Assembly: GCA_964518565.1 (NCBI GenBank)
Contig: CAZFGX010000001.1
Coordinates: 734,568-798,567, forward strand
From: an uncultured Gammaproteobacteria bacterium
GTDB lineage: Bacteria > Patescibacteriota > Microgenomatia > CAZETR01 > Amesbacteraceae
Direction: 5' to 3'
DNA length: 64,000 nt
Shown piece after piece: positions 1 through 56,257 of this stretch (the first letter of the stretch is position 1; every line of letters begins with the position of its first letter). The notes under the pieces were generated by a model. It was not told where the DNA came from and made no database searches. It saw nothing but the letters and a program-made list of their open reading frames with translations. A program made the translations under genes and the position numbers.

Positions 1-3000
1 ACTTCTTGGGATGTTAGTAGCACTGGTGTAGCTAGCGGTCTCACTGGTCTCACTTCATCTGGAACTATCACTTTTTCCGGACTCAGTAGTGCTGGCCTAG
101 TCACAAACACCTCCGGTGGTGTACTTGGCACCACTACTACTATCGGCGCTGCATATATCACCGCCGATTCCTTAGACTTCACTGAATTCAAAGACTCAAT
201 GGCCCTCGACGCCGCCCTCACCATAGCGCAGGGTACTAATACTTGGACTCAGACATTCACCGGTACGACTGGTCCTGCCATATCTCTGACCGCCTCTGGC
301 AATGTTTCTTCTGGTAATGCCTCTGCTTTGTATATCAATGCTTCAAATGCCTCATCCAGTGTCTCACCTGTCATGATTAGTAATAGCTCTGCTCAACCCA
401 GTATCTGGATCAACGACGATGGTACAGATGCCGACAGTACTCCATTTGTAGTTGATGCCTCTGGCAATGTCGGAATTGGCGATTCAACACCAGACAATGC
501 CTTAGATATTGCCGGCACCACAAATGGTATCTACGGTATTGATGTCACCAACTCCAGCAACGGCTCGGGTGCCGTAACCACAGCCAGCTTCACCAACGAT
601 GCTTCAGCTCAAGTGCTAGTCGGTATGGGTGGTTCCAACGCCATCGCCAATGTATTAGGTAGCCGAGCATTTATGCAAAGCAACTCTACTTCAAACGGTA
701 TCTCTCTAGTCGCAAATGGATCAGCCGACGACATTCGCTTCTTCACCGGTGGCCAAGCCACTACCAATGAAAAACTTAGAATCTCAGATCTTCCTGCCGC
801 AGGGGCTTCCGGAGACATCATTTCCTCCACCTACACCTTAAATGCCATGGATGGCTCAGACACTGTCAATGCCATGATTCTCAGCCTTACCAACCCCAAC
901 CACACCATTGGCTCAAATGTGCTAAATGGCATAAACATTGCTGGTATTACAGGTGACGCAGATGCTACTGAAAACGCCTTCCAAGTTGGAACCGGTTGGG
1001 ACAATGTCCTCTCATACAACAACACCGCCATCATCAATGGTTCAGGCATACTACAATCAGCCGCTCTCTCAGGAACATATTCAAATGCCCTAACGCTCTC
1101 CTCAACTTCAAACGCCTTCACTGGTACCATTGGTCAATCCACAGCCCTAGCCGGATCATTCACCACTCTATCCTCAACTGGAGCCACCACCTTGGGCAAC
1201 AATTCTTCCACAGTTGCTATCGACACCACTTCTTGGGATGTCAGTTCAGCTGGCGCCATCTCCGGACTCACTGGATTCACCCAAGCATCCGGAGCCTTTT
1301 CCTCCACTCTTAGTACTACAAATACTGCCACTTTCAATTCCACCACAGCCAATTCTGACTCTATCGGTATCAAGCCCCAAACCACCACAGCTACTAATTC
1401 TTTCACTGGCACCATCACTTCAGATGATCTGACTGCTGCTCGCACCTGGACTCTTCCAGATGCCACCGGTACCATCTGTGTCTCTGGCCAATCATGTGCT
1501 TTGACCGGTACCGTCACTTCATCAGGCAGTTCTCTAAACACCCAACTCGCCTACTTTACTAGCGACTCAAATATCACCGGTAGCAGCACCTACACATTTA
1601 GTCCCAGCCCCACAACTGGTGCTGGTTTAGCACTTACTGGTTCTGGAGTGACTTCCGGATCACTCTCTCGCTTCACTGGATCTGGCGCCACCATGACTAC
1701 CGGTGGTGAACTCCTAGACTTAGTCATGGGTGCCAACACAGTTGGTGCTGGCATGACAATTACTTCTACTGGTGTATATACCGGAACTGGCGCTGCCGAT
1801 GGTCTAATAAACGTCGTCGCCAATTCTCTTACCACCGGGCTCGGATCTCAATATTCCTACACCGGTCTTACATCTGGATCTGGTGAAAGAGTTACTGGAT
1901 CTGGCGCTACCATGACTACTGGTGGTGAACTTCTAGACTTAGTACTTGGTGCCAACACTGTCGGTGCCGGCATCACCGTTACCTCTTCTGGTACCTACAC
2001 TGGCACTGGATCAGCCGATGGACTCATCAATGTAGTTGCCAACTCTCTCACCACCGGCGATGGTTCAAAGATGTCCTTCACTGGTCTGACTTCTGGCACA
2101 GGTTTAGAAATCATCGGCGGTACATCAATGACTACCAACGGTGAATTAGTAGACTTAAATATGGGTGCCGCCACAGCTGGAAATGGTCTAAACATAAATA
2201 CTTCAGGCGTCTATACAGGTACTGGCCTAGCCGTTCTTACTGCAAACGCCATGACCACAGGCCAAGCCATGAGTATCTCCACTACCGGACTCACATCTGG
2301 ATCCGCTCAAAGAATCACCGGATCCGGAGCAACAATGACTACTGGCGGCGAATTAGTAGATTTAGTTCTAGGTGCCAACACAGTTGGCGCTGGTATGACC
2401 ATCACTTCCACGGGCGCCTACACAGGTGTCGGCACTGCTGACGGTTTAATAAACTTAACTGCCAATTCACTCACCACAGGATACGCTAGTCAAATATTTA
2501 CCAACGGCCTCACCACTGGTAGATCACTAAACATCAATTCCACATCAACAGCATTAACTACTGGTAGTCTTGGATATCTCGAATGGGCTCCTGGCTCCAG
2601 TACCACCGCCACATCTGCAGATCTTTTCCGCATCAACATTGGCACAAATGGTAATCTGTCATCAGGCAATTTATTCAATGTCACAGATGCCGGCACCACC
2701 CTCTTCTCTGTCAACGAATCTCAAGTTACTTCAGCTCTTCCACACCAATTCACCGCCTCAGGAGACGTATCTATCGCCTACGATCTCAATTTCACCAATC
2801 AAACTTCCAGCTTTATCAAATCCAATTCCTCACTCACTATCCAATCAGGTGAAAGTTTCGAATCAAACAATCTGACTCTACAAACCTATGGTTCTGGCCG
2901 AGTTGTCTTTGATGTCAACGGTACAGCCAACGGCGGCATCCTACTTTCAAATGCTCCTTCTTCCCAAACTCCCAAAGGCTTATTCATGGTCTCGGGAACT

Positions 3001-4434
3001 GCCACAAACAATGCGCTGGCCATCTTCAATGAAACTGGCAGTGCTGCCATTCTTACAGCTTCAAACTCTGGCACAACCGTCATGACCCTCACAAATGGTT
3101 CTGGTGCAGATCTTATTATCGGTGCCGATGGTACCAATACTGCCGCCAACATTAGCGGCAATGGTCTACTCGCTTATGGCGCCATCTGTGCCGACGACAC
3201 TCTAGACACAGCCGACGATTGTATCGACGCTTCCCGCACAGCCGGAACAGTGTATGGAATTTCTTCCAGCTTCACCATCGATGACGTTGGCGAAAACTTC
3301 CCCACACTCGACAACAACATTCAAGCCGGTGATGTCGTCAGTACAGATTATCAAAGCATTCCCAATGAACCAGCTGCTGAAAACTACGCTTACGAAACTG
3401 AATTCGTTAAAAAAGCTACAAACGGAGATACTTCAAAAGTCTTAGGCGTAATCTCCGAAAAACCTGGCGTACTTCTCGGTGGCTGGGGTCAGAAAAAAGA
3501 TCCACGCTCAGTCAAAGACGTGGCCATTGCCCTTTCTGGTCGTATTCCAGTTAAAATCTCTCAAAACTCAGCTCCTATTCAAGCCGGAGATTATCTGACC
3601 ACCAGTTCCGAACCTGGAAAAGCCCAAAAAGCCACCAAACCAGGCCATATGATTGGAAAAGCTTTAGATGCCTGGAATCCTAATAGCGGAAAAGACACTG
3701 TCCTATTCTTTGTCCAAAATGGTTGGGCGGATCCAACCAATTTCCTTGCTTTCGATGACAGTGGAAATCTTGTAGTGCCTGGTACAGTGACTGCTTCAGA
3801 ATTTGCTGCCAAAACAACAGATATCAACAATCAAACAATTCAAATTACCAATATCAAATCAGAATTAGATGTCCTAAAAGATCAAGTTGCTTCTATCTCT
3901 GCCGAACTAGCCAATCTCCAAACAAACAACGCCTCTTCTAGTGGTCTACCAATAGATCAAAACTGGGCAATTTCTACAGATTCTGGCCGACTAGTGACCA
4001 CTCTAGCCGTTCAAGTACCTCAGCTCTCAGTTACTGGCAGACTCAATGTCGGTACACTCGTCTTTGACGACATTCTCTCAGACATCACTTCATTAACAGG
4101 CGAAATTTCTCTCAACGGTGGCGTAGTCACGATCGACGATCAGGGTAATATCACCACCACTGGCACACTAGCCGCCAAAGAAATAACCACTGAAAAAGTA
4201 AATATCCTCGGTACGGCGACAGAAAGTGCCTCACTTGGCAAAGCAGTCATCCCCACTGGTACGACAGAATTCAGTATCGACACTACAGCGGTCTCCACTA
4301 GCTCATCAGTCTTTGTTACTCCAGAAATCCCAGTTGCCATCTCCGCAAGTGCCACAGAATCTGGTAAGTTTGTAGTTCGTATCCCCCAAATTCAACCTAC
4401 TGATGTCAAATTCAGCTGGTGGGTCATTAACTAA
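1..4434 (+). CDS. Giant Thr/Ser/Gly-rich repetitive surface protein (adhesin or fibre-like), 5'-truncated by the window edge. It has a C-terminal coiled-coil followed by a globular domain.
   Basis: Frame 1 is open from nt 1 with no stop before 4432-4434, so the ORF-track start at 199 is only the first in-window ATG. Composition is dominated by T/S/G/N. There are four ~73-aa tandem repeats (TGSGATMTTGGELLDLVxGANTVGAG...). A heptad-like segment ITNIKSELDVLKDQVASISAELANLQ lies near the C-terminus. Confidence 0.7.
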   Translation, partial: TSWDVSSTGVASGLTGLTSSGTITFSGLSSAGLVTNTSGGVLGTTTTIGAAYITADSLDFTEFKDSMALDAALTIAQGTNTWTQTFTGTTGPAISLTASGNVSSGNASALYINASNASSSVSPVMISNSSAQPSIWINDDGTDADSTPFVVDASGNVGIGDSTPDNALDIAGTTNGIYGIDVTNSSNGSGAVTTASFTNDASAQVLVGMGGSNAIANVLGSRAFMQSNSTSNGISLVANGSADDIRFFTGGQATTNEKLRISDLPAAGASGDIISSTYTLNAMDGSDTVNAMILSLTNPNHTIGSNVLNGINIAGITGDADATENAFQVGTGWDNVLSYNNTAIINGSGILQSAALSGTYSNALTLSSTSNAFTGTIGQSTALAGSFTTLSSTGATTLGNNSSTVAIDTTSWDVSSAGAISGLTGFTQASGAFSSTLSTTNTATFNSTTANSDSIGIKPQTTTATNSFTGTITSDDLTAARTWTLPDATGTICVSGQSCALTGTVTSSGSSLNTQLAYFTSDSNITGSSTYTFSPSPTTGAGLALTGSGVTSGSLSRFTGSGATMTTGGELLDLVMGANTVGAGMTITSTGVYTGTGAADGLINVVANSLTTGLGSQYSYTGLTSGSGERVTGSGATMTTGGELLDLVLGANTVGAGITVTSSGTYTGTGSADGLINVVANSLTTGDGSKMSFTGLTSGTGLEIIGGTSMTTNGELVDLNMGAATAGNGLNINTSGVYTGTGLAVLTANAMTTGQAMSISTTGLTSGSAQRITGSGATMTTGGELVDLVLGANTVGAGMTITSTGAYTGVGTADGLINLTANSLTTGYASQIFTNGLTTGRSLNINSTSTALTTGSLGYLEWAPGSSTTATSADLFRINIGTNGNLSSGNLFNVTDAGTTLFSVNESQVTSALPHQFTASGDVSIAYDLNFTNQTSSFIKSNSSLTIQSGESFESNNLTLQTYGSGRVVFDVNGTANGGILLSNAPSSQTPKGLFMVSGTATNNALAIFNETGSAAILTASNSGTTVMTLTNGSGADLIIGADGTNTAANISGNGLLAYGAICADDTLDTADDCIDASRTAGTVYGISSSFTIDDVGENFPTLDNNIQAGDVVSTDYQSIPNEPAAENYAYETEFVKKATNGDTSKVLGVISEKPGVLLGGWGQKKDPRSVKDVAIALSGRIPVKISQNSAPIQAGDYLTTSSEPGKAQKATKPGHMIGKALDAWNPNSGKDTVLFFVQNGWADPTNFLAFDDSGNLVVPGTVTASEFAAKTTDINNQTIQITNIKSELDVLKDQVASISAELANLQTNNASSSGLPIDQNWAISTDSGRLVTTLAVQVPQLSVTGRLNVGTLVFDDILSDITSLTGEISLNGGVVTIDDQGNITTTGTLAAKEITTEKVNILGTATESASLGKAVIPTGTTEFSIDTTAVSTSSSVFVTPEIPVAISASATESGKFVVRIPQIQPTDVKFSWWVIN
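1672..2540 (+). repeat. Four tandem coding repeats of ~219/219/204/225 nt inside the giant surface-protein gene
   Basis: Repeat unit F/VTGSGATMTTGGEL(L/V)DLV(M/L)GANTVGAG(M/I)T(I/V)TS(T/S)G.YTGTG.ADGLIN(V/L)(V/T)ANSLTTG recurs at nt 1672, 1891, ~2110 (diverged) and ~2314 in the translated frame. Confidence 0.8.
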
Positions 4435-4435
4435 C

Positions 4436-7400
4436 ATGCGTATCAAAAAACCCAAATTCACCAAGAAAAAATTCTTTAGTTTTATCAGCAGTTTATTTCT
4501 TTTTATCGGAATTGCGGCAGTCTTTATGCGGCTTACAGCACCGGCAATCGAAGCCGCTTGGTTCGATGATACGTATGCCTATCGTGTCAAACTCATTTTT
4601 ACCCACAATGCCACTATTGGTGACCCTCGAGCCGTGACTTACAGGCTCGATACCGCCGAACTCATTTCGGCCAACATGATGCAATCAGATTGTGATGATA
4701 TTCGGTTTACAGATGTAAATGGCAAATCATTACTCTATGACCTTACAGGCACTTGCAACAACGCCACCACTGCATTTGAAATAGTTTTTCCCAACATAGT
4801 AAACGGATCAAATATTGCCTATGCGTATTACGGCAGTCCAAATGCCGTGAACGGTGAAATCGACTCTACCCAATTTACAGCTCTCACCCCATCTGGAGGC
4901 GATCCATCAGACGAAACCGCACCCACCACCAATCAAGAAGTAGGCCCCGGCCCAATTCTGTATTGGAAATTTGATGAAAAAGTCGGCACTACTGCATATG
5001 ACAGCACCTTAAACAGAAACAACGGCACGGTTGATTCTGCTTCTTATTGGAAAACTCCAGATTTATGTGCCAGTGGTCCATGTATTTATTTCACCGGTGG
5101 CAACAATCGTGTTTCCAAAAGTTACAGTTCAGATACTGAACTTGATCCTGGCAGTGGCAGTATGACTATCTCAGCCTGGACAAAACGTTCAGCCACAGCT
5201 ACTGATACAGACTATATCGTTTCCCGCGAATCTACCGGTGGATACAACTTATATATGAACAGTAGCGGCAATCTGTGTTTTGAAATCAAATCCGGCGCCA
5301 ACACAGACACTGCCTGCTCCACCACAACCTATGTAGATTCTACTTGGCACTATATCACTGGAGTAAAAAATGCCACCACATCAATAACTCTCTATATAGA
5401 TGGCAAACAAATGGGTCAAGACGCATCAATATCCGCCACCGGTTCAATCAGCGGTTCGTCCCCTACATTTTCCGTTGGTAGAAATTCCGACGGCGTCACT
5501 ACAAATGAATGGGTAGGTTTTATAGATGAAGTCAAATACTACAATTACGCCAAATCCGCCACTCAAGTACTGAATGAATTTAGCACCAAAACTCAATCAA
5601 AAGGTACCAATGCATCTTTTGGCGATAGTAGCACTACAAATCTTTCCAGCAATGGCCTGATGGGCTATTGGAAAATGGATGAGTACACCTCAAATCTCTG
5701 TTCAGGCGGCGCAAATGATAGTTGTGACTCATCTGGAAACAGTAATGATGGTCTATGGAATGGCAATGTCGCCGCCGTCTCTGCCACCAAATATTTTTAC
5801 GGCACATCCTACGACGGTACTGGAGATTATGTTGGCACTTCAAACAATAATTCAGTCAAAGGTAAATCCCAAGTTTCGGTGTCTATGTGGATCTACCCCA
5901 CAACAGTCAATTCCGTCCAACGAGACATCTATGCCGAACCCATAAATGCCGATGATTCAAATCGTTTTGAGCTAATGCTAGATTCTGACAACGCTATGTA
6001 TTTTGGTGGCCGCAGCACCGACACCAACAGTTTTGAAGATTGGGCAGATGGCACTACTACTATTAGTGCAAATAATTGGTATCACATTGTCGCTATATAC
6101 GACGGTGTAACCGGTAAACACAAACTATATGTCAACAATATTCTCCAAGACTCTTTCTCGACCACCCCAAGAGCCTTTGACAACACAAATCCATTTGCAG
6201 TCCCAAGAATTGGCGCCAACACTCTCGGAACTACTGGATTCATAGGCCGAATCGACGAAGTCAAACTTTACAGCCGAGCCCTAAGTGCCAATGAAGTCAC
6301 CAATTTATACGATGTTGGACCTGGTCCAGTCGGATATTACAAACTCGATGAAGCCGGTGGCACTACTGTGACAGACAATGCCAGCGCAAATACAGGAGTT
6401 CTCACTTCTAGTCCTGTTTGGGTCACCGGCAAATACGGACAAGGTCTAAAATTTGACGGCAGTGCTTCGTATGTCCGTGGCGACTCCCCTTCTACAAACT
6501 TAGCCTTAGTAGAAAATGTCACTGTCTCTGCCTGGGTCTATCGCCGCGTCGCCGGGGCCAATCACACCGTCGTCGAATATGCTTCAAATGGTGAAACCGA
6601 AACCACCAACGAAGCCTACAGTTTATTAATCAACTCGACAAACAATCTGGAGCTAAATTGGGAACATAGCACAGGGACAAACGATAGCACTGTTTCCACC
6701 GCCACGCTAACGACCACCTCCGGCGCCTGGATTCATGTCGCCGCAGTACGAGATATAAACAACAACACCGTCAAATTTTACGAAAATGGCGTTCAGTTAG
6801 GCACTACGGTTTCATATACAAACGATCCATCTGGTTCAGACAGCTCGTCAAATCGTATAGATATCGGTCGAGATGCCAGCAATGGTACAAACTATTTTGA
6901 CGGCACGATAGATGATGTAAGAATTTATAACTACACGCTCACCCCCAAACAATTAGCCATTGAAATGAATGCCGACCATCCCACAGTTGGCACACCCGTC
7001 GGCGCATATATCTCCTATTGGCCATTTGATGAAGGACGGGGTACTACGGCCAATGACAAATCATTAAATGCCGACAATCTCACTCTTTCCACTTCATCCT
7101 GGACCAGCACTGGAAAATTTTTCAATGCCTGGAATGGCCTTGGTACAAACTACATCTCTCGGTCAAATGACAGTGATTACGATGTCGACACCAACAGTTT
7201 TTCAATTAGTTTTTGGTTCAAGTCAGACAACAGCGGCGGCTCAGGTACCCAGTACATAGTAAACCGTGCCTCGTCCACCATCGCCGGATTTGCCGTCTAT
7301 GGAAATTCTTCTGGAAACATTGTCTTTGGCGTGGACGACGACACCAGCTGGGGGCCAGATGCCATCGTCACCTCTTCCAGCAATTTATACAATCAAGCCT

Positions 7401-9070
7401 GGCATCACATTGTCGCCGTAAAAACCGATACTTCCAGATTAGACCTGTATGTCGACGGCAAGCTAAATGCCTCAACAACTACTGGTGTTCCCACTGGCTC
7501 TCTTTCAAACGACCTTACCTTATATATAGGTGATCGCGACGGTACAGACAATGGCGATGAAGCCTTGGTGGATCTTGATGAAGTCAAAATTTATTCTGGC
7601 GCCTTGTCTCTTCAAGATGTCCAAGTCGAATACAATCACGCTTCCCAAACCCAACTCGGATCGCTCTCCACCAGTTCAGATGGTGTCACCATAGCAAACG
7701 ATACTGCACGTGGATACTGTGTCCCTGGCGATACCTCTACATGCAACACCCCAGTCTTAGAATTACAAATGGATGAAAACTCAGGCACATCAGCATTTGA
7801 CACCTCCGGAAATGGCAACACCGGCACACTCACGTTAGGCCCCACCTGGACAGCAGGCAAATTAGGCCCAGCCGTAAGTTTCGACGGCTCAGACGACTAC
7901 ATCACCGTTACAGACGCCAACAGTTTAGATCTCACCACCAGCGGTTCAGCCATGGCCTGGGTACGTCGAACCAGCACAGGTACTTACGACACGATCCTAG
8001 GCAAAGGTGCAGCAAACGCTGCAGCATCCCACAATTACGCTATGGAATTTACCGATACAAACACAATGGATGTCATTGTCGGTGGTGGTGGTGTGAGTGG
8101 CCAAACTTGCAACGACGGTTCTACGACATTTACAGACACCACCAACTGGCATCACTATGCTATGACGTGGGACAATTCAAATATACGTTTCTATTACGAC
8201 GGTAAACAAGCATTCAGTTGTACTCAAACTGTAGCAGGCACGGCAAATACAGCAGCATTATTAATAGGAATGTTTGGCGGAAGTGTGGACAATCTCGCCG
8301 GACAAATAGACTCAGTCAAAGTCTACAATTACACTCGCAGCGCATCTCAAATATCCTGGGATTACAACCAAGGCAAATCAGTCGCATATTGGAAATTTGA
8401 TGAATGTCAGGGATCTACTCTCTATGATTCATCTGGTGGCGGCTACAATGGTACTTGGAATGGCGCTTCCAGCGGCACTCAAACATCAGTCGGCTCATGC
8501 AACACTTCAAGTACTGCCTGGGGCAATGGCGCTACTGGCAAATTCAGTTCATCACTAAACTTTGACGGTACAAACGACTATGTCGAAGTCGCAAATGCCG
8601 CAGCATTAAATTATGTTTCTAGACCATTTAGTATTTCTGTATGGCTCAATAAAGGTAGTTCATTTGGCTCAACCTTTGCCCGCGTAGTAGACAAAATTAG
8701 TGCCGGCACAGGAAATGGCTATGGAATAGATATGCACGACACAACCATTCGCATCTTGGGTAGCACCAGCGTTGGCTTTACCTACTCTACCTCATCCAGC
8801 ACCTGGTACCATCTCGTAGCCACATATGACGGATCAAGTACTGGTACTTTATATATAAATGGAAACTTAGTTAGTTCTGGCTCATATGCAGCAGCCAATG
8901 CCTACACCGGCACACTTCGTATCGGTGCCGCCAGCGACGCCACCTCACCATTTACCGGTAAAATTGATGAAGTACAAATATTCCCCTATGCACTCACCGC
9001 CAGACAAGTAAAAACCATTTACAACCAAAACTCTGCCATTCGCTTTGGTCCACAAACTGGTACACCCTAG
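4436..9070 (+). CDS. Giant secreted or membrane-anchored protein with an N-terminal TM/signal anchor and at least six concanavalin-A-like/LamG (LamG_3-type) lectin domains
   Basis: N-terminal hydrophobic helix FFSFISSLFLFIGIAAVFM. Six recurring jelly-roll C-terminal strands: IDEVKYYNYAKSATQV, IDEVKLYSRALSANEV, IDDVRIYNYTLTPKQL, LDEVKIYSGALSLQDV, IDSVKVYNYTRSASQI, IDEVQIFPYALTARQV. Start placed at the ATG at 4436 immediately after the upstream stop; the track start at 4403 would overlap by 32 nt. Confidence 0.75.
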   Translation: MRIKKPKFTKKKFFSFISSLFLFIGIAAVFMRLTAPAIEAAWFDDTYAYRVKLIFTHNATIGDPRAVTYRLDTAELISANMMQSDCDDIRFTDVNGKSLLYDLTGTCNNATTAFEIVFPNIVNGSNIAYAYYGSPNAVNGEIDSTQFTALTPSGGDPSDETAPTTNQEVGPGPILYWKFDEKVGTTAYDSTLNRNNGTVDSASYWKTPDLCASGPCIYFTGGNNRVSKSYSSDTELDPGSGSMTISAWTKRSATATDTDYIVSRESTGGYNLYMNSSGNLCFEIKSGANTDTACSTTTYVDSTWHYITGVKNATTSITLYIDGKQMGQDASISATGSISGSSPTFSVGRNSDGVTTNEWVGFIDEVKYYNYAKSATQVLNEFSTKTQSKGTNASFGDSSTTNLSSNGLMGYWKMDEYTSNLCSGGANDSCDSSGNSNDGLWNGNVAAVSATKYFYGTSYDGTGDYVGTSNNNSVKGKSQVSVSMWIYPTTVNSVQRDIYAEPINADDSNRFELMLDSDNAMYFGGRSTDTNSFEDWADGTTTISANNWYHIVAIYDGVTGKHKLYVNNILQDSFSTTPRAFDNTNPFAVPRIGANTLGTTGFIGRIDEVKLYSRALSANEVTNLYDVGPGPVGYYKLDEAGGTTVTDNASANTGVLTSSPVWVTGKYGQGLKFDGSASYVRGDSPSTNLALVENVTVSAWVYRRVAGANHTVVEYASNGETETTNEAYSLLINSTNNLELNWEHSTGTNDSTVSTATLTTTSGAWIHVAAVRDINNNTVKFYENGVQLGTTVSYTNDPSGSDSSSNRIDIGRDASNGTNYFDGTIDDVRIYNYTLTPKQLAIEMNADHPTVGTPVGAYISYWPFDEGRGTTANDKSLNADNLTLSTSSWTSTGKFFNAWNGLGTNYISRSNDSDYDVDTNSFSISFWFKSDNSGGSGTQYIVNRASSTIAGFAVYGNSSGNIVFGVDDDTSWGPDAIVTSSSNLYNQAWHHIVAVKTDTSRLDLYVDGKLNASTTTGVPTGSLSNDLTLYIGDRDGTDNGDEALVDLDEVKIYSGALSLQDVQVEYNHASQTQLGSLSTSSDGVTIANDTARGYCVPGDTSTCNTPVLELQMDENSGTSAFDTSGNGNTGTLTLGPTWTAGKLGPAVSFDGSDDYITVTDANSLDLTTSGSAMAWVRRTSTGTYDTILGKGAANAAASHNYAMEFTDTNTMDVIVGGGGVSGQTCNDGSTTFTDTTNWHHYAMTWDNSNIRFYYDGKQAFSCTQTVAGTANTAALLIGMFGGSVDNLAGQIDSVKVYNYTRSASQISWDYNQGKSVAYWKFDECQGSTLYDSSGGGYNGTWNGASSGTQTSVGSCNTSSTAWGNGATGKFSSSLNFDGTNDYVEVANAAALNYVSRPFSISVWLNKGSSFGSTFARVVDKISAGTGNGYGIDMHDTTIRILGSTSVGFTYSTSSSTWYHLVATYDGSSTGTLYINGNLVSSGSYAAANAYTGTLRIGAASDATSPFTGKIDEVQIFPYALTARQVKTIYNQNSAIRFGPQTGTP

Positions 9071-14264: not shown

Positions 14265-15281
14265 ATGAATCCTAACAACACCAATCCCGCAAATCCAAAC
14301 GAAGGCGTCGCCTATATCCCTCAAGCCAACCCTACTCCAGTGGTCACAGAAGAAAAACCAACTGTTATTAGTAGTTCAGATTCTTCTCAACCAAAATTCT
14401 CCAAAAAAGCTCTTATCGCTGGTCTGACTGTTCTTACTCTTATTGCTGGTGCAGTCACCTCATTAGTATTAGTAAATCGCCAAGCCAGATATGTCACCTC
14501 TGCTTGGGACTGTACCAAATACACCTTCAATGTCTCAATCACCGGGAATGTGACTGCCACAAACCAATCTCAGCGCGACGAACCAGCTCAAAATGTCAGT
14601 ATCGAAATCACTCCCAACAACGGAACAAAAACCAGTCGTATCTTCAACGTCCCCCCACTTAAAAAAGGTGAAACAGCAAATTTGGGAACTGTCGCCGTTC
14701 CAAATGGTGGTGGATTTTCTTGGAACGCCGTCGGCTCAGACGATTGTAAAAACAGTGGCAATTACGGCGCCATCAACACCCCAACTCCTAGCCCAATTCC
14801 TCCTACCAACACACCTGTCCCCAGTACCAAACCTACTAGCACACCAAAGCCTACCAATACACCAAAACCCACAAACACGCCAGCTCCTACAAATACACCT
14901 CGGCCCACTACCATTCCAACTGGCTCACCAATTCCTACAAACGTTCCTAGTGCTACACCCACTCCCACCACACCTCCTATTGGCGGCGGTCCTACCAACA
15001 CACCCAATCCTACTCAGCCTCCAACGGCCAGTGAACCAAATTCCTGCAACGGCACTTGTGGCTCAGACGCAAACTGTAAATCCGGACTGACTTGCTACAC
15101 AGGCTACTGCCGAAACCCAAACAATCCATCCAGTATCAGTTGTGCCGACAAGCCAACCGCATCAAACCCCCAGCCCACCCCCATCTCCAGCTTGCCTACA
15201 TCTGGCGCAGCTGAATACACTTGGGCACTTGGCATTGGTGGTGTTCTCCTCCTCGGTCTAGGCGCCCTATTAGCTCTGTAA
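14265..15281 (+). CDS. Pro/Thr-rich cell-surface protein with an N-terminal TM anchor, a PT linker, a Cys-rich 'CRNP' module and a C-terminal LPxTG-like sorting signal (LPTSG + hydrophobic tail)
   Basis: TM helix ALIAGLTVLTLIAGAVTSLVLV. Repeats TNTPKPTNTP... Cys module CNGTCGSDANCKSGLTCYTGYCRNP. C-terminus SSLPTSGAAEYTWALGIGGVLLLGLGALLAL. Confidence 0.6.
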   Translation: MNPNNTNPANPNEGVAYIPQANPTPVVTEEKPTVISSSDSSQPKFSKKALIAGLTVLTLIAGAVTSLVLVNRQARYVTSAWDCTKYTFNVSITGNVTATNQSQRDEPAQNVSIEITPNNGTKTSRIFNVPPLKKGETANLGTVAVPNGGGFSWNAVGSDDCKNSGNYGAINTPTPSPIPPTNTPVPSTKPTSTPKPTNTPKPTNTPAPTNTPRPTTIPTGSPIPTNVPSATPTPTTPPIGGGPTNTPNPTQPPTASEPNSCNGTCGSDANCKSGLTCYTGYCRNPNNPSSISCADKPTASNPQPTPISSLPTSGAAEYTWALGIGGVLLLGLGALLAL

Positions 15282-28196: not shown

Positions 28197-28267
28197 GGGC
28201 CATTAGCATAGTAGTAGTGCGCCGCATTCGCATTGCGGATACGGGGGTGCGATCCCCCCATGGTCCA
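28197..28267 (+). tRNA. tRNA-Ala (anticodon CGC)
   Basis: Hand-folded cloverleaf. Acceptor GGGCCAT/ATGGTCC with G3:U70. D-stem GCAT/GTGC. Anticodon stem CCGCA/TGCGG with loop TTCGCAT. T-arm GGGGG-TGCGATC-CCCCC. Discriminator A. CCA not encoded. Confidence 0.75.
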
Positions 28268-28336
28268 CCGAGTCTGCGAGCTGGATCATAGAGGAAATCA
28301 TAAAGATATTGATTTCCGATATGGTCCGATCAAATT

Positions 28337-28605: not shown

Positions 28606-28676
28606 GGGCCCGTAGTTCACCGGTAGAATAACTCAATGGCATTGAGTAGAAAGGGGTTCAATTCCCCTCGGGTCCA
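28606..28676 (+). tRNA. tRNA-Ala (anticodon GGC)
   Basis: Acceptor GGGCCCG/CGGGTCC with G3:U70. D-arm GTTC-ACCGGTA-GAAT. Anticodon stem ACTCA/TGAGT with loop ATGGCAT. Canonical T-arm AGGGG-TTCAATT-CCCCT. Confidence 0.8.
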
Positions 28677-28739
28677 CATAAATTTTCCCAATACAAGCGT
28701 CTTCACGAAAACCAAATTAACAAAAAAGTGTATGAGTAG

Positions 28740-31088: not shown

Positions 31089-32267
31089 TCAGCGCAAAAT
31101 CGCCTGCTCAAAGGCTCTTTTATCCGATCGCTCTATCTCACGCTCCCCGATACGTTGTGTTTGTTCATGTCCCATACCAGTCGCCACCACAATATCGCCC
31201 TTTTTAGCCAGTTTCACCGCTCGCAAAATCGCCACATCCCTATCATCTTCTCGTTCAATACGTGCCATGTCTACCCCTCGCGTCATGTCGGCAAAAATCT
31301 TATCCAACGGTTCATCGTATGCATCATCGCTAGTAATTATTACTTTGTCGGCCAATTTAACAGCTATCGATGTCATAACTGGTCGTTTTGCAAAATCCCG
31401 CCTACCTGTACAACCAAACACTAAAATAATCTTGCCTTTCTTTACCTCCATTCTCAAACTACCTAGCAGTTGTTCCAACGCCTGAGGCGTATGAGCAAAA
31501 TCCACAATCGTTCGTATACCTAAAGAGTTTTTTATTTCCTCTCGCCTACCTGGCACCCCCACAAATGTCTTCACAACACGCGAGATCACTTCAGAATCTA
31601 CCCCCAACAACTCCGCCACTTTGGCAGCTGCCGAAATATTGTACCGATTGTAATCTCCTCCTAATGTCTGACTTATCGCTGTTCCCACAAACGGTCCATA
31701 CTCCACAATCTTTGCCTGCAAAATTCTTGTTCGAAACCAATCAAACCACGCATCGTCTTTATTCAAAACTGCAAAACGTACACCAGCAAACAAACGTAAT
31801 TTCGCCGAAGCATATCGCTCCATTGTCTTGTGGTAATCCAAATGTTCGTGTGCCAAATTGGTCCACACACCAATCAAAAAATTACACCCCCATACCCGAT
31901 ATTGATCCAATGCATGAGATGTAGTTTCTACCACGACCACCTCTACGCCTTGATTCAACATAGTAGCCAACACTCGTTGCAAAATAGCTGCCCCTGGAGT
32001 CGTCGCATGTAATACATTTGGCAAAATGACCTCTTTACCCTTGTGCCAAAATTTAGTCTCCACAGTAGTGATCATCCCCACAGACTGCCCTGCCGCTTTT
32101 AACATTTCATAGATCAAAAACGAGGTAGTAGTTTTACCATCAGTACCTGTCACACCAATCGTTTTCAGTTTTTGAGCTGGAAATCTGTAGTACACAACCC
32201 AAAAAACTGCTTCAAAAAAATGCCAAATATTTTTTAATTGTTGCATATTCATATTAATTATACCCAT
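31089..32267 (-). CDS. murE: Mur ligase, MurE-like (UDP-MurNAc-L-Ala-D-Glu: diamino-acid ligase), lacking the usual N-terminal domain
   Basis: IGVTGTDGKTTTSFLIYEML P-loop. VVVETTSHALDQYRV...WTNLAHEHLDYHKTMERYASAKLRLF. Start set at MGIINMNMQQ after the SD GGGAGGTAATA. The track start at 32315 would translate through the 23-bp palindrome. Confidence 0.75.
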   Translation of the reverse strand: MGIINMNMQQLKNIWHFFEAVFWVVYYRFPAQKLKTIGVTGTDGKTTTSFLIYEMLKAAGQSVGMITTVETKFWHKGKEVILPNVLHATTPGAAILQRVLATMLNQGVEVVVVETTSHALDQYRVWGCNFLIGVWTNLAHEHLDYHKTMERYASAKLRLFAGVRFAVLNKDDAWFDWFRTRILQAKIVEYGPFVGTAISQTLGGDYNRYNISAAAKVAELLGVDSEVISRVVKTFVGVPGRREEIKNSLGIRTIVDFAHTPQALEQLLGSLRMEVKKGKIILVFGCTGRRDFAKRPVMTSIAVKLADKVIITSDDAYDEPLDKIFADMTRGVDMARIEREDDRDVAILRAVKLAKKGDIVVATGMGHEQTQRIGEREIERSDKRAFEQAILR

Positions 32268-32679
32268 TATTACCTCCCTGAACGTCCCTCCTTTGTAAGG
32301 AGGGACTAAACGCAATAATTTGTAGTTTTATTTCTTGAACACAATTCTGAAGGTGTATAAAAATCTGTGAGTTGGCAAACCGAAGTATCGTAATACCATA
32401 TTCATTCAATGTCCTCGTTCTATAGACATCAAAATCTTTTTGTGATAAATGAATATCGCCATCTACTTCCAAACCCAATTTAATTTCAGGACAATAAAAA
32501 TCCATAATATAAGTTCCAAAACTATATTGACGGCGAAACTTCACTCCCAATTTTTTTCTACGAATCTCCTCCCACAAAACCTGTTCTGCAGCTGTCGCAT
32601 TGTTACGCAGCTTTCGTCGAGTCTCGGTAAGAAACTGCTTATTTTTTAAATATGTCACAACAATAAATATATCTACCAT
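32254..32679 (-). CDS. DUF559 / Vsr-like (very-short-patch-repair endonuclease fold) protein
   Basis: LTETRRKLRNNATAAEQVLWEEIRRKKLGVKFRRQYSFGTYIMDFYCPEIKLGLEVDGDIH...ILRFANSQI is the DUF559 signature. Start set at MVDIF, 7 nt after the SD AAGGAGG supplied by the upstream palindrome. Confidence 0.6.
   Translation of the reverse strand: MVDIFIVVTYLKNKQFLTETRRKLRNNATAAEQVLWEEIRRKKLGVKFRRQYSFGTYIMDFYCPEIKLGLEVDGDIHLSQKDFDVYRTRTLNEYGITILRFANSQIFIHLQNCVQEIKLQIIAFSPSLQRRDVQGGNNGYN
32284..32306. repeat. Perfect 23-bp palindrome GTCCCTCCTT-TGT-AAGGAGGGAC (left inverted repeat of the DUF559 insertion)
   Basis: 10-bp arms and a 3-nt loop. Exact inverted partner at 32682-32704. Confidence 0.85.
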
Positions 32680-32681
32680 AC

Positions 32682-32704
32682 GTCCCTCCTTACAAAGGAG
32701 GGAC
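32682..32704. repeat. Perfect 23-bp palindrome GTCCCTCCTT-ACA-AAGGAGGGAC (right inverted repeat of the DUF559 insertion)
   Basis: Identical arms to 32284-32306 with the loop reverse-complemented. Contains the SD for the DUF559 gene on the minus strand. Confidence 0.85.
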
Positions 32705-32716
32705 AAATAGGGAGGT

Positions 32717-33751
32717 TTACAAAAACGCCAACCACATACCAAATACAGCCACAATTACTCCCGCCAGCCATGCTCTAGCTACAATTTTCGGCTCTTCCCA
32801 ACCAACGAGTTGCAACCAATGATGAATAGGCGCAATTGGGAAAATACGTTTCTTCATAAATTTTTTCGAAAACAACTGCAACAAACTACTTCCACCTTCC
32901 AACAAAAAAATACTTCCCACCAACAACAAAGCTACAATCTTTCCCGACAACAAGCCCACAACTGCCAATGTAGCTCCAAAAGCCAACCCTCCCATATTTC
33001 CTAACATAATTCTCGCCGGATATACATTGAAATACAAAAACGCCAGCAATGTCCCCATCCAAATCGAAATAAATACCACCAAAACACTATCTAGATTAGC
33101 CACTGATACTATCCAAAACGCCAACAAACAAATAAACAACAGTCCACACGATAATCCATCCAATCCGTCAGTAATATCAAATCCATTGGCAAACGCCACA
33201 ATTAAAAATGCCGCCAGGAAAAAATACCCCACTCCCAAATGCACCATTCCTAAAAACGGAATATGGATAAATGAGATTTGTAATACCCAAGTCAAAATAG
33301 CAGCCACGATAATCGCAATTATCCATTGCACGATTAATTTATGCCGCATTCTCAATCCAAAAAATCCCGTCTTGGCAAAACCCACAATTTTAATTACATC
33401 ATCATAAAATCCTAAAGCCGCATACCCGCCAAAAGTCAACAAAATTACCAACACCTCATGTTCAAATTTATAACCAGGCAAAAAGCTAGGATTCGTATGA
33501 GCAAACAAAAATACAACCAAGGACATGACAATCACCACCAACGCCAACAAAATACCTCCACCAGTAGGCACACCAGCTTTGACCGCGTGCATTTTTCGAA
33601 TATCATAAAACGCCTTTGTTGCGCTTGCCCGTTTTTCTTCCACTTCAGTTTTACGAGTGAATTTCAGCTTATATAGCAAGCCAATAAACGGAATCATCAG
33701 AGCCGAAGTAGTACCAAATGCCAACAGCAAGAGCCCTAAATAGAACCGCAT
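32717..33751 (-). CDS. mraY: Phospho-N-acetylmuramoyl-pentapeptide transferase
   Basis: About 10 TM helices. NVYPARIMLGNMGGLAFGATLA motif of the MraY/WecA family. Lies among Mur ligase genes. Confidence 0.85.
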   Translation of the reverse strand: MRFYLGLLLLAFGTTSALMIPFIGLLYKLKFTRKTEVEEKRASATKAFYDIRKMHAVKAGVPTGGGILLALVVIVMSLVVFLFAHTNPSFLPGYKFEHEVLVILLTFGGYAALGFYDDVIKIVGFAKTGFFGLRMRHKLIVQWIIAIIVAAILTWVLQISFIHIPFLGMVHLGVGYFFLAAFLIVAFANGFDITDGLDGLSCGLLFICLLAFWIVSVANLDSVLVVFISIWMGTLLAFLYFNVYPARIMLGNMGGLAFGATLAVVGLLSGKIVALLLVGSIFLLEGGSSLLQLFSKKFMKKRIFPIAPIHHWLQLVGWEEPKIVARAWLAGVIVAVFGMWLAFL

Positions 33752-35064: not shown

Positions 35065-35874
35065 GTGCAAACACTCACCGCACCCCATCAAAATTTTGAA
35101 ATCACCAAACATATCGACGAATCAGGATTTGAATACTGGACAGCACGAGAATTGATGGAATTATTGGGCTATTCTAAATGGTCCAACTTCAAAAAAATTA
35201 TCGAAAAAGCAATCATATCCTGTAGCAAGTCTGGTCAAAAAATTTCTGATCATTTTCCCGAAACCAGCAAAAAGATAATAATCGCAACAGGTACGTCTAA
35301 ACAAACAAGTCGGGATATCCAGGACTACAAATTGTCCCGTTATGCCTGTTATCTTATAGCCCAAAACGGTGATCCAAACAAAGCCCCAATCGCCGTGGCT
35401 CAGACATATTTTGCCCTTCAAACTCGCCGCCAAGAACTCTTCCAAAGTTTAAACGAAGACGAACGCCGACTATTCATTAGAAATGAAGTCAAAAAACAAA
35501 ATAAAAAACTCTTTAGCACTGCCAAAAAAGCCGGTGTCAAAGACTTTGCCGCCTTCAATAATTTTGGCTATCTTGGTCTCTACAACCAACCCTTAGAAAA
35601 AATTAAATCTTCCAAAAACATAGGTGAAGATGACATTCTGGATCGCGCCGGGTCTACAGAACTAGCAGCCAATCTATTTCGTATCACCCAAGCTGAAGAA
35701 AAAATCAAAAACGAGCATCTACACGGACAAGGAAAGGCCAATATTGCCCATTTTGTTGTCGGTAAACAAGTGCGTAAATCTATTGAAGAAATTGGCGGCA
35801 CCATGCCAGAAAATCTGCCTCCTCAGCCCCATATCGCCAAACTCAAACCCAAATCCCAAAAACTTCTCAAATGA
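35065..35874 (+). CDS. dinD: DNA-damage-inducible protein D (DinD)-family protein with an N-terminal Bro-N/KilA-N-like domain
   Basis: FEYWTARELMELLGY...LSRYACYLIAQNGDPNKAPIAVAQTYFALQTRRQEL...GSTELAANLFRITQ matches my recollection of the DinD family signature. 269 aa. Confidence 0.65.
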   Translation: MQTLTAPHQNFEITKHIDESGFEYWTARELMELLGYSKWSNFKKIIEKAIISCSKSGQKISDHFPETSKKIIIATGTSKQTSRDIQDYKLSRYACYLIAQNGDPNKAPIAVAQTYFALQTRRQELFQSLNEDERRLFIRNEVKKQNKKLFSTAKKAGVKDFAAFNNFGYLGLYNQPLEKIKSSKNIGEDDILDRAGSTELAANLFRITQAEEKIKNEHLHGQGKANIAHFVVGKQVRKSIEEIGGTMPENLPPQPHIAKLKPKSQKLLK

Positions 35875-52563: not shown

Positions 52564-52614
52564 TTTAAACCTCAAAAAAAGGGCAGAAGGTTCCCCCTCT
52601 GCCCTAAATCACAC

Positions 52615-54718: not shown

Positions 54719-55468
54719 CTAATTCTCTGTTTTTATCGGTGTAGCCACCACAATCAACCGCTTCCAACTCGTCCCAGGCGGATAACATGTTTGCAATACC
54801 AACTGCTCCTTTTGATCTTGTGTTCGCAAATAGCTCAAATCTTTCGCGGCAATAATATGTCGCTCACTCATCTGATATCGATATAGTTTATCTTTATACA
54901 CAATCTGAATCTCATCCCCCAATTCCAGCCGATGTAGCAAATAAAAAATCGCATTATATCTTGCAAAATCCAAGCTAGATCCAACTGAATGAGCAAACAA
55001 ATAAGTCGTCCCCACCTGTCCAGGCACAGCCAATCCTTTTGCCGCTGCCACTCCTTGTTTCAAAGCTGCAGAGTATGCCCGAGAATCAAACGGATCTACC
55101 TCATCCACCACTCTAGACTTTGCCAAAATTTTTGGGATATAAATCGAATAATCTGAATCTGGTACACTCCAGGTTGGCTTACCCTTATCCTCTTTCGTAT
55201 ACACATGAACAATTTGATTAGGTTGGCTATTAGAAATCCGCTCCACCGCCCTACCTGCTGACGTCTGTCCAAACCCATATTTCATTTCCTCTCGCAACAC
55301 TGGCCACACCAACCACAAAACAAACAATACCCCGCCTACCACTACACCCAAACCAAATCGATCCAGAAATCGCACGACTCTTCGCAACCGGCTCAATTGC
55401 CGACCTACCGCCACTTCAGTCGTAACTTGTGGTGGAGAAGAACTCTCAAAGATTAGCCCTTCTTTCAT
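54719..55468 (-). CDS. Sortase (cysteine transpeptidase)
   Basis: N-terminal TM anchor. His motif TTYLFAHSVG. Active-site Cys in LVLQTCYPPG (TLxTC-like). Conserved Arg in RLIVVATP. Confidence 0.7.
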   Translation of the reverse strand: MKEGLIFESSSPPQVTTEVAVGRQLSRLRRVVRFLDRFGLGVVVGGVLFVLWLVWPVLREEMKYGFGQTSAGRAVERISNSQPNQIVHVYTKEDKGKPTWSVPDSDYSIYIPKILAKSRVVDEVDPFDSRAYSAALKQGVAAAKGLAVPGQVGTTYLFAHSVGSSLDFARYNAIFYLLHRLELGDEIQIVYKDKLYRYQMSERHIIAAKDLSYLRTQDQKEQLVLQTCYPPGTSWKRLIVVATPIKTEN

Positions 55469-55474
55469 AAATAT

Positions 55475-56257
55475 TTACCAAATCCTTTTTGCCAATGTCT
55501 TCACTCCAAATCCTATACCAAATACCCCTGCAGCACCCAATAATATCCAACCTTCGCCTCCAGTGTCTGGAGTAGTCTGTACCTTACCACAAAAACAACT
55601 CTTATCAGATGGACAACTTGGATTTCGACAAACTCCTTGAAAACAACCAAAACCCGCACCACAAGCCGAATCATTAGTACACATCTGGCCACAAGCACGA
55701 ATAATAGTCGGGGTTGGGGTTTTCGTTGTCACCAGTGTTGGTGTTCCAGTCGGCGGCTGACTCAAAATAGTCGTCGGAATTACAGCTACAGTTGGTGTTA
55801 CGCGCAATACTGGACGAGTTGGCAATGGGGTAATGGGTGGTGTCCCAGTTCCATCCCAACAATCACCCGAATACCACACCATGTACCCCAACAATTTACA
55901 TTCTGGATTCCATGTTCCATCTTGTCTCCGACAAGTTTTGTCATATAAAGACAATTGGATTGTCTTGCCACAAGCCGCAGTGCCAAAAGACTCAGAATTA
56001 CTCCAATATCCTTCCGATTCCAAACACTGATCCCATCTCCCAGAACAGGTATATTTCACCACCCCACCTGACTGACTCTGACATGTTCCTGTAGTTGGAT
56101 TACATCCCACATCGCAGCTGTATCGAGTCGCCGCAGTACCAGATCCACACAAATTTACATACGTCCCAGATCCATACGACAAAGCTGCGTGCGCCGTATC
56201 CGCCAACCCCGCCAAACCCAAAAGCATAAAAAGGCAAATGAAAACAAGGTATCTCAT
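55475..56257 (-). CDS. Secreted Cys-rich protein with a signal peptide, a PT-rich linker, a 'CRNP' cysteine module and a C-terminal sorting signal (candidate substrate of the adjacent sortase)
   Basis: Signal peptide MRYLVFICLFMLLGLAGLADTAHA. PT linker. CGQMCTNDSACGAGFGCFQGVCRNPSCP. C-terminus TTPDTGGEGWILLGAAGVFGIGFGVKTLAKRIW (motif + hydrophobic helix + basic tail). Confidence 0.6.
   Translation of the reverse strand: MRYLVFICLFMLLGLAGLADTAHAALSYGSGTYVNLCGSGTAATRYSCDVGCNPTTGTCQSQSGGVVKYTCSGRWDQCLESEGYWSNSESFGTAACGKTIQLSLYDKTCRRQDGTWNPECKLLGYMVWYSGDCWDGTGTPPITPLPTRPVLRVTPTVAVIPTTILSQPPTGTPTLVTTKTPTPTIIRACGQMCTNDSACGAGFGCFQGVCRNPSCPSDKSCFCGKVQTTPDTGGEGWILLGAAGVFGIGFGVKTLAKRIW

Follow-up and report, generated by a model that had tools for sequence, protein, structure and literature searches.

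How bacteria of the Candidate Phyla Radiation (CPR) hold proteins at their surface is the question raised by two genes in a stretch of 64,000 nucleotides (the window) from an Amesbacteraceae genome (NCBI GenBank assembly GCA_964518565.1, contig CAZFGX010000001.1, positions 734,568 to 798,567, forward strand). Named homologues and loci assign the organism, an uncultivated ultra-small bacterium, to Candidatus Amesbacteria (Microgenomates, CPR). CPR bacteria are obligate epibionts, and to our knowledge almost nothing is known about their surface proteins. The two genes encode proteins A and B, which share a Cys module ending in CRNP, and a gene next to that of B encodes a sortase. An earlier note on this DNA proposed that the module defines a family of sortase substrates and forms a disulfide-rich knot immediately before a merged cleavage motif, (L/T)P(T/D)(S/T)G. 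The comparative analysis indicates that B is very probably the cognate substrate of the adjacent sortase, and that the module, as judged from sequence, is a widespread membrane-proximal stalk element lying outside the sorting signal.

Both open reading frames (ORFs) were present with the layout that the note had assigned to them: an N-terminal hydrophobic segment, a Pro/Thr-rich linker, the Cys module and, at the C-terminus, a motif with a hydrophobic tail behind it. They were the only ORFs of the window with a PxTG-like motif ahead of a terminal hydrophobic segment, and their C-terminal 80 residues could be aligned (BLASTP E=3e-10, 30% identity). The features of protein B and its sortase are as follows (retrieved proteins and loci are numbered with P and L, respectively; TM, transmembrane segment).

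55475..56257, minus strand: gene of protein B, an ORF of 260 aa (250 aa in the public call), 100% identical to P0001
56186..56257, minus strand: predicted signal peptide of B, MRYLVFICLFMLLGLAGLADTAHA, with an AHA-A cleavage-type site, read from the sequence and helical in the AlphaFold2 (AF2) model
55859..56161, minus strand: Cys-rich N-domain of B, aa 33-133, with 10 conserved Cys (invariant columns in alignment A1; AF2 predicted local distance difference test, pLDDT, 80-93)
55694..55858, minus strand: Pro/Thr-rich linker of B, aa 134-188, from sequence and alignment
55589..55693, minus strand: eight-Cys module of B, CGQMCTNDSACGAGFGCFQGVCRNPSCPSDKSCFC, from pattern scan and alignment
55559..55573, minus strand: putative TPDTG sorting pentapeptide of B (family consensus x-P-x-T-[G/A], alignment A1)
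55478..55558, minus strand: hydrophobic segment (55502-55558) and basic tail KTLAKRIW (55478-55501) of B, from sequence and alignment
54719..55468, minus strand: membrane-anchored sortase, 249 aa (PF04203 3e-20, TIGR01076 above cutoff)
55295-55357, minus strand: TM of the sortase, aa 38-58, read from the sequence
54986-54997, minus strand: His160 of the sortase, in FAHS, aligned to 6ixz
54773-54796, minus strand: Cys228 of the sortase, in LQTCYPPG, aligned to 6ixz
54749-54763, minus strand: Arg237 of the sortase (KRL), aligned to 6ixz
Stretches covering the candidate sortase motifs of B and of A, respectively: KVQTTPDTGGEGW and PISSLPTSGAAEY

Protein B thus consists of a signal peptide, a Cys-rich N-domain, the linker, an eight-Cys module, TPDTG, a TM and a K/R tail. 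Read in order, MRYLVF...TAHA is followed later by GEGWILLGAAGVFGIGFGV and then by KTLAKRIW, and all three are conserved in the 33 homologues; the signal peptide, the hydrophobic segment behind the motif and the positive tail of a sorting signal are therefore all found in B. The pentapeptide retains the Pro, Thr and Gly of LPXTG and has lost the Leu. In alignment A1 of the B family (33 sequences) P230 never varies and the conservation of T232 is at least 90%, and homologues encoded next to a sortase carry NPQTG, TPETG, TPKTG, VPRTG, TPDTA and similar motifs. The 32 homologues of B, of about 250-350 aa, share the signal peptide, the 10-Cys N-domain, the Pro/Thr-rich linker, the module and an xPxT[G/A] C-terminus, and their basic tail mostly ends in Trp. 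A Pfam and NCBIfam scan of full-length B returned no family, only noise, and no TIGR01167-type match was obtained at E<=1. Foldseek of the full-length B model against the PDB gave no match below E=0.09, the N-domain having no fold match. This 10-Cys N-domain was also observed in PKD-domain proteins (P0034-P0044; about 400 aa) whose C-termini consist of QPxTG, a TM and K/R, suggesting that it is a separately shuffled surface domain.

The identification of ORF 54719-55468 as a sortase was confirmed by both family models, with 72.6 bits for PF04203 (cutoff 26.6) and 44.1 bits for TIGR01076 (cutoff 39.35), and alignment A3 shows no variation at its catalytic His, Cys and Arg, which could be matched to those of the solved sortase 6ixz. 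None of the class-specific NCBIfam sortase models A-F reached its cutoff: the best was SrtD (55.7 bits against 140), followed by class C (42 against 160), class E (38.6 against 160) and class F (19.6 against 166). By these scores the enzyme fits no established class. Both genes lie on the minus strand, with B transcribed first and the sortase starting 6 nt past the B stop, so that B is indeed next to the sortase as noted earlier, but upstream of it in transcription and not directly downstream.

The pairing was conserved across genomes. In every locus retrieved for B homologues (L001-L008) the gene order was S1 protein, RadA, B, sortase, with Rho following the sortase in L001, L003, L005 and L006 and one additional substrate-like gene between B and sortase in L001/L002. 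From the sortase side, 69 sortase loci of GTDB genomes with 932 kb of flanking sequence were searched. A gene ending in xPx[T/A][G/A], a TM and K/R lay directly upstream on the same strand in 21 of these loci, including all 15 closest relatives. The module was present in 10 of the 21 adjacent substrates and missing from the other 11. Since both the tripartite signal and the gene pair are conserved across many genomes, the adjacent sortase very probably acts on B, as far as sequence comparison can tell. The window also encodes the peptidoglycan pathway enzymes MurA-F, Ddl, MraY, MurI and UppS, indicating that a wall is available for anchoring. Sortase is near-ubiquitous in Microgenomates, and an MdbA-like oxidoreductase and VKOR are common in CPR (PMC6744442).

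In some Amesbacteria the sortase is preceded by a tandem pair of substrate genes (L012 6327-7990, L001 6001-7590, L016 6224-7867 and L018). One is a module-bearing B-type gene; the other encodes an unrelated beta-rich protein (about 235-250 aa) whose C-terminus carries NPEAG, TPKTG or TPTTG with a basic tail, a layout that recalls two-subunit sortase operons. In the window itself three genes separate the sortase from Rho (49841-51148), namely one with a weak kinase-like match (53616-54638), a 346-aa gene (52615-53655) and adenylosuccinate synthetase (51274-52575). These genes (51274-54638, minus strand) look like a lineage-specific insertion or rearrangement; they are also found in L007, and the sortase directly precedes Rho in L003, L005 and L006.

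The Cys module of A and B has the spacing C-x3-C-x5-C-x5-C-x4-C-R-N-P. The sequences quoted earlier were correct, but the second gap is x5 and not x4 as first read. A six-frame scan of the 64-kb window found CRNP and the five-Cys pattern at only two sites, 15045-15119(+), with CNGTCGSDANCKSGLTCYTGYCRNP, and 55619-55693(-), with CGQMCTNDSACGAGFGCFQGVCRNP. Beyond this core A gains a sixth Cys (x10) and B three more (CRNPSCPSDKSCFC). The expectation that the spacing would be conserved in homologues was borne out: all module Cys together with R211, N212 and P213 were at least 90% conserved in the 33-sequence B-family alignment, whose members had been found without use of the pattern. The module was conserved in 31 of the 33, one member having an insertion and one having no module.

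A module-only profile, built from 53 module sequences over 38 columns with linker and signal left out, retrieved 2089 clusters at E<=1e-3 and 444 at E<=1e-10. The named members of this family are annotated 'hypothetical protein' and come from Patescibacteria. The highest-ranking profile matches were many-repeat proteins, for example P0163 of Myxococcota with 49 stretches; these matched the generic four-Cys core only (profile positions about 6-28) and were not counted as family members. No Pfam or NCBIfam model scored above threshold for the module; DUF7107 (PF23416) gave 12.7 bits for A and 15.3 bits for B, below its cutoff of 24.6. Literature searches on sortase, LPXTG and CPR and on Cys-rich and knottin proteins of Patescibacteria yielded general statements only, on sortase being common in Microgenomates and on Cys-rich surface proteins in Peregrinibacteria, and no account of the module or of the A and B signals.

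The AF2 model of the 38-residue module had a pLDDT of 91.5. Its Foldseek neighbours were the Draxin Cys-rich domain (probability 0.97, root-mean-square deviation 0.7 A, 39 columns), EETI-II, conotoxins, spider toxins, the N-termini of Dkk4 and kiwellin, and DPY, the best of them being without exception small folds of disulfide-rich or knottin type. Draxin, EETI-II, the conotoxins and the Dkk4 N-terminus can be superposed on the predicted fold; the module differs from knottins in being internal to anchored proteins and not a free peptide. The six-Cys spacing fits the loose inhibitor cystine knot pattern. Alignment and model together support a conserved, independently folding mini-domain of disulfide type with knottin-like neighbours, much as had been proposed. 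A Zn-binding cluster, suggested by weak matches to the Nab2 zinc finger, was rejected on two grounds: the better neighbours of the module are disulfide domains, and it lies outside the cytoplasm.

Two solved structures were matched by the profile: the Dumpy DPY module (ECVLNSDCPSNQACVNQKCRDP, E=4.5e-4) and the kissper of kiwellin (SSCNGPCRDLNDCDGQLICIKGKC, E=1.1e-3). The DPY module has the spacing Cx5Cx5Cx4C (PMC12723725), and C2-C5 of both window modules reproduce this core exactly, followed by R-[D/N]-P ('CRDP' in DPY and 'CRNP' here; PF21164, PDB 1oig). With PF21164, 17 of the 53 module sequences matched at E<=1 (best E 6.5e-7); the modules of A and B had no match at this limit, and four relatives scanned singly gave 17-22.5 bits, below the gathering score of 27 bits. 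The settings are alike, both modules being found in extracellular stalk or fibre proteins with repeats. They differ in that DPY has four Cys (two disulfides), belongs to the insect extracellular matrix and is flanked by EGF repeats, whereas the CPR module adds an upstream Cys (x3) and one to three downstream Cys. The kissper of kiwellins (PDB 4pmk, 4x9u) has a six-Cys spacing identical to that of A and some sequence resemblance to it (SCNGPCRDLNDCDGQLICIKGKC against SCNGTCGSDANCKSGLTCYTGYC); the profile match to 4pmk spans 24 residues, and the spacing was read from 4pmk. Its six Cys form three disulfides (PMC9813671). In contrast to the CPR module, which has no kiwellin barrel, kissper lies N-terminal to a double-psi beta-barrel in plant defence proteins and has neither RNP nor a membrane anchor, and the likeness could have arisen by convergence within a small disulfide scaffold. 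We take the module to be a new family within the small disulfide-rich domains of DPY, kissper and knottin type.

What the module does was approached through its distribution among a strict-module set, 100 of the 150 best module-only profile matches. A TM or anchor lay C-terminal to the modules in 95 of the 100 proteins. Fifty end in an ordinary TM and tail and 45 in a sorting-type C-terminus; the ordinary tails exceed 25 aa in 47 of the 50, are presumably cytoplasmic and have no PxTG-like motif. Tandem arrays of 1-5 modules repeat every 41 aa. Where a sorting-type C-terminus was recognisable (87 module proteins), a median of 57 aa separated the end of the last module core from the C-terminus. 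The module is also not always present: the B orthologues encoded beside the sortase in L017, L019 and L021, the B orthologue P0032 and the A-family members P0051, P0055 and P0070 have none. A constant position, optional presence and tandem copies are most simply read as those of a juxtamembrane stalk cassette, stiffened by disulfides and comparable to the DPY modules of the Dumpy fibre. A large subfamily (P0214, P0221, P0243, P0251, P0293 and about 40 others) has three modules (CRLA/CR[NR]P/CRLA), a TM and a Pro-rich tail ending in SSMMDRLKQKGI, the tail end 'SSMM(D/E)RLK(Q/D)KGI' being conserved; by this arrangement its members are type I membrane proteins with an apparently conserved cytoplasmic docking peptide.

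Protein A carries a different set of parts around its module.

14265..15281, plus strand: gene of protein A, an ORF of 338 aa with an N-terminal membrane anchor, a small beta-rich domain, a Pro/Thr-rich linker, one Cys module and LPTSG with a hydrophobic C-terminus
14409..14474, plus strand: N-terminal hydrophobic segment of A, aa 49-70, read from the sequence, preceded by a 48-aa polar, N/P/T-rich head
14490..14768, plus strand: extracellular N-domain of A, aa 76-168, 'AWDCTKYTFNV...', homologous to P0070 and related proteins
14769..15044, plus strand: Pro/Thr-rich linker of A, aa 169-260, read from the sequence
15045..15143, plus strand: six-Cys module of A, CNGTCGSDANCKSGLTCYTGYCRNPNNPSSISC, C-x3-C-x5-C-x5-C-x4-C-x10-C
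15192..15206, plus strand: LPTSG pentapeptide of A, with Ser at position 4, class II type (see below), from motif scan
15207..15278, plus strand: C-terminal tail of A, AAEYTW and then a hydrophobic stretch to ...GALLAL, with no K/R tail

The TM of A, at aa 49-70 behind the polar head, resembles a signal anchor more than a cleavable signal peptide, and would be either a signal anchor or an uncleaved signal. LPTSG departs from the canonical pentapeptide, and the protein ends in ...GLGALLAL without K/R; some A orthologues have short basic tails, and LPx[ST]G is kept in P0048, P0049, P0053 and P0055. Homologues of gene A lie between the prolyl- and tyrosyl-tRNA synthetase genes (ProRS and TyrRS), syntenically in L009 and L010. 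No sortase gene adjoins A in the window, nor its counterparts in L009 and L010, although one sortase lies 40 kb away in the same genome, and a Pfam and NCBIfam scan of full-length A returned no family, only noise. Behind the N-terminal hydrophobic segment, 'VNRQAR' (14472-14489, plus strand) is a weak version of [NQ]Q[DE]xRxxA. The motif [NQ]Q[DE]xRxxA(S) stands directly behind this segment in many module-bearing CPR surface proteins, 24 of the 100 strict-module proteins among them (P0052, P0058, P0088, P0214, P0221, P0299 and others; examples are LVKNNQDIRDRA and SQENRQQAS), and may be a lineage-specific signal-peptide processing or retention motif.

The C-termini of A and B fall into two statistically distinct classes of signal, so that the merged motif (L/T)P(T/D)(S/T)G had to be given up. 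In 125 proteins whose terminal hydrophobic segment is preceded by a PxTG-like motif, a Thr at position 4 went with a basic tail in 60 of 70 cases, and a Ser or Ala with a tail free of any basic residue in 49 of 55 (Fisher p=7e-18). With the B family excluded, the numbers with and without a basic tail were 29 and 9 for Thr against 6 and 49 for Ser/Ala (Fisher p=1e-10). On this basis we define two candidate signals, class I as xPxT[G/A] with a TM and a basic tail (B) and class II as [LIV]Px[S/A]G with a hydrophobic end and no basic tail (A). Class II is not described in the literature searched. All sortase-adjacent substrates belonged to class I; in the 932 kb around the 69 sortase genes the only class II hits were three short minus-strand ORFs (L016, L077), judged spurious.

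The class II proteins that were looked up, five from different lineages, were all terminal in a conserved PilN/PilO cluster (L080 6285-10786; L081 5429-10657; L082 3640-10440; L083 4358-11281; L084 4273-8954), and no sortase was found within 8-10 kb of these five clusters. The cluster order is MurJ (opposite strand), S20, PilN, PilO, a small TM protein, an fn3-like protein, one or more large proteins and the class II protein, and genes for a PMT-type glycosyltransferase, DUF2298, LCP (LytR_cpsA_psr) and FemAB flank it. An fn3-like gene of the cluster also ends in the class II signal (VPTSG...). The N-domain of A is 35-40% identical to those of the terminal cluster protein P0070 and its relatives, which sit in PilN/PilO clusters; A itself lies between ProRS and TyrRS, and among the window ORFs of at least 150 aa that were scanned PilN and PilO were absent.

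These data bear on two other views of the module. Had the CRNP module and (L/T)Px(S/T)G formed one extended signal that defines dedicated sortase substrates, with the knot required for the enzyme to recognise or position them, the near-fixed distance of the last module from the motif, with its core a median of 57 aa before the C-terminus, and the presence of the module in 10 of the 21 sortase-adjacent substrates would be explained. The ordinary TM and tail of 50 of the 100 strict-module proteins, the 11 sortase-adjacent substrates that do without a module, the B orthologues of L017, L019 and L021 and P0032, which lack it with signal and sortase retained, and the module-free A-family members P0051, P0055 and P0070 would not. 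The comparative data therefore largely refute this view, and we consider it very improbable. The module could instead be a ligand or toxin-like element, such as a protease inhibitor, a pore-former like kissper or a receptor-binding knottin, given that its structural neighbours include bioactive knottins and the receptor-binding domains of Dkk and Draxin and that kissper forms ion channels in bilayers (PMC9813671). Yet the module lies close to the membrane beneath a long linker and not at an exposed tip, occurs in tandem copies and is optional within orthologous families, and its closest sequence relative, DPY, is a structural fibre module (PMC12723725); a dedicated ligand function is thus improbable, if somewhat less so than the extended signal.

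As to anchoring, B and its dedicated sortase might build a pilus or fibre by class C-like polymerisation. Co-transcription of sortase and substrate, the tandem substrate genes before the sortase in L012, L015/L001, L016 and L018, and the closest solved homologues of the sortase, 6ixz and 7d6p ('sortase family protein'), which we take to be pilin-type sortases, are consistent with this. The class C model, however, gave 42 bits against 160 and class D 55.7 against 140, no conserved lid motif was seen in alignment A3, no pilin motif or E-box was recognisable in B, the fold search found no pilin-like Ig domains, and only one substrate gene is present in the window. The class C score and the missing lid motif give no support to a class C pilus system, and polymerisation in general appears quite unlikely. 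Less easily set aside is the view that A and the class II proteins are not sortase substrates at all but have a permanent anchor or are processed otherwise, possibly in connection with PilN/PilO. The sharp split between Thr with a basic tail and Ser/Ala without one, which persists when the B family is left out, argues for it, as do the lack of a genuine class II ORF within the 932 kb around 69 sortase genes, the terminal position of all five class II proteins looked up in S20-PilN-PilO clusters with no sortase within 8-10 kb, and the place of A between ProRS and TyrRS with no sortase nearby. On the other hand, a plain TM anchor would not explain why a pentapeptide is kept at a fixed distance before it, a sortase is encoded in the genome, and housekeeping sortases (SrtA-type) are usually unlinked to their substrates. 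Some A orthologues, moreover, bridge both classes (LPQTG...FIKK, LPESG...SRKIA, LPESG...FRKS), and classes I and II may be a continuum served by one enzyme. We regard a sortase-independent fate of class II as a serious possibility that falls short of an even chance.

The model that we favour combines a stalk role of the module with sortase processing of B. A and B would be exported by Sec, and in each a small N-terminal domain would be held away from the cell by the extended Pro/Thr linker. Beneath it, some 15-20 residues ahead of the C-terminal anchor, would stand a module of 33-35 residues with three (A) or four (B) predicted disulfides, whose extracytoplasmic oxidation is probably the work of the DsbA/MdbA-VKOR-type machinery common in CPR. 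In 0-5 copies the module would act as a rigid, protease-resistant stalk element close to membrane or wall and would have no part in recognition for sorting. The co-transcribed membrane sortase, acting as characterised sortases do, would cleave B at xPxT|G and attach it to a peptidoglycan precursor. A, with LPTSG and no basic tail, may be a weaker substrate of the same or another sortase, may stay membrane-anchored or may take another route. Taken as a whole, this model seems to us reasonably probable.

Several observations weigh against it. The B motif is without the canonical Leu, and no NCBIfam LPXTG-anchor model matches A or B. A has Ser at position 4, no basic tail, an N-terminal anchor in place of a clear cleavable signal, and no nearby sortase. 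Neither DsbA nor VKOR was found among the window ORFs of at least 150 aa that were scanned, and cleavage, wall linkage and disulfide formation are all predictions. The Foldseek E-values of the 38-aa model, a tiny domain, were all above 0.4, so that the fold call draws on probability, TM-score, root-mean-square deviation and borderline profile matches, and 'knot' denotes a resemblance. A structural stalk role is the most economical reading, though the data do not separate it from a binding role.

B resembles the substrates with a Gram-positive cell wall sorting signal in its signal peptide, PxTG pentapeptide, hydrophobic segment and basic tail and in the adjoining membrane sortase with His, Cys and Arg. 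The B system differs from them in a free position 1 (T/S/N/A/V/P/L), a position 5 that may be Ala, a sortase that matches no class model, and a CPR host; A differs in the Ser/Ala at position 4 and the absence of a basic tail. Closest by motif is SrtB of C. difficile with its (S/P)PxTG substrates (PMC4155245), position 1 being other than Leu in both. The MdbA/VKOR systems of Actinobacteria, homologues of which are widespread in CPR, are a precedent for Sec-exported sortase substrates that contain disulfides and need oxidation outside the cytoplasm, and may offer a parallel to the present module. A broader proposal, which we put forward tentatively and consider rather unlikely as it stands, is that CPR bacteria use two C-terminal anchoring signals, a sortase-linked class I and a class II that is sortase-independent or differently catalysed and tied to a PilN/PilO envelope structure, with the module shared by both and by type I membrane proteins. 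Should this hold, the module might be a lineage-specific juxtamembrane stalk module and a rare expanded knottin-like family of bacteria, a consequence that we hold with equal reserve.

Other features of the window were observed in passing. Two overlapping ORFs near its start, one of 1411 aa without Pfam match (199-4434, plus strand) and one of 1555 aa with six Laminin_G_3/ConA-like lectin domains and a match resembling the clostridial-neurotoxin receptor-binding domain (4403-9070, plus strand), probably encode large surface or adhesion proteins; neither has a sorting-type C-terminus. Within the mur/mraY cluster lie a DUF559 endonuclease-like gene (32254-32754, minus strand) and a Bro-N gene (35065-35874, plus strand), types usually tied to mobile elements or phages. 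Two tRNA-Ala genes with anticodons CGC and GGC (28197-28269 and 28606-28677, plus strand) are 340 nt apart.

The sortase and its signal are ordinary biology in a new lineage, and their value is incremental. Beyond that, the locus supplies a clear, conserved pair of sortase and substrate whose xPxTG motif is relaxed, a hint that there may be a second C-terminal signal for anchoring, and an abundant mini-domain (more than 2000 sequence clusters) that lacks a Pfam or NCBIfam model and appears to mark the base of many CPR surface stalks. The module profile together with the two tail types would permit systematic annotation of CPR surface proteomes and the choice of candidates for host attachment.

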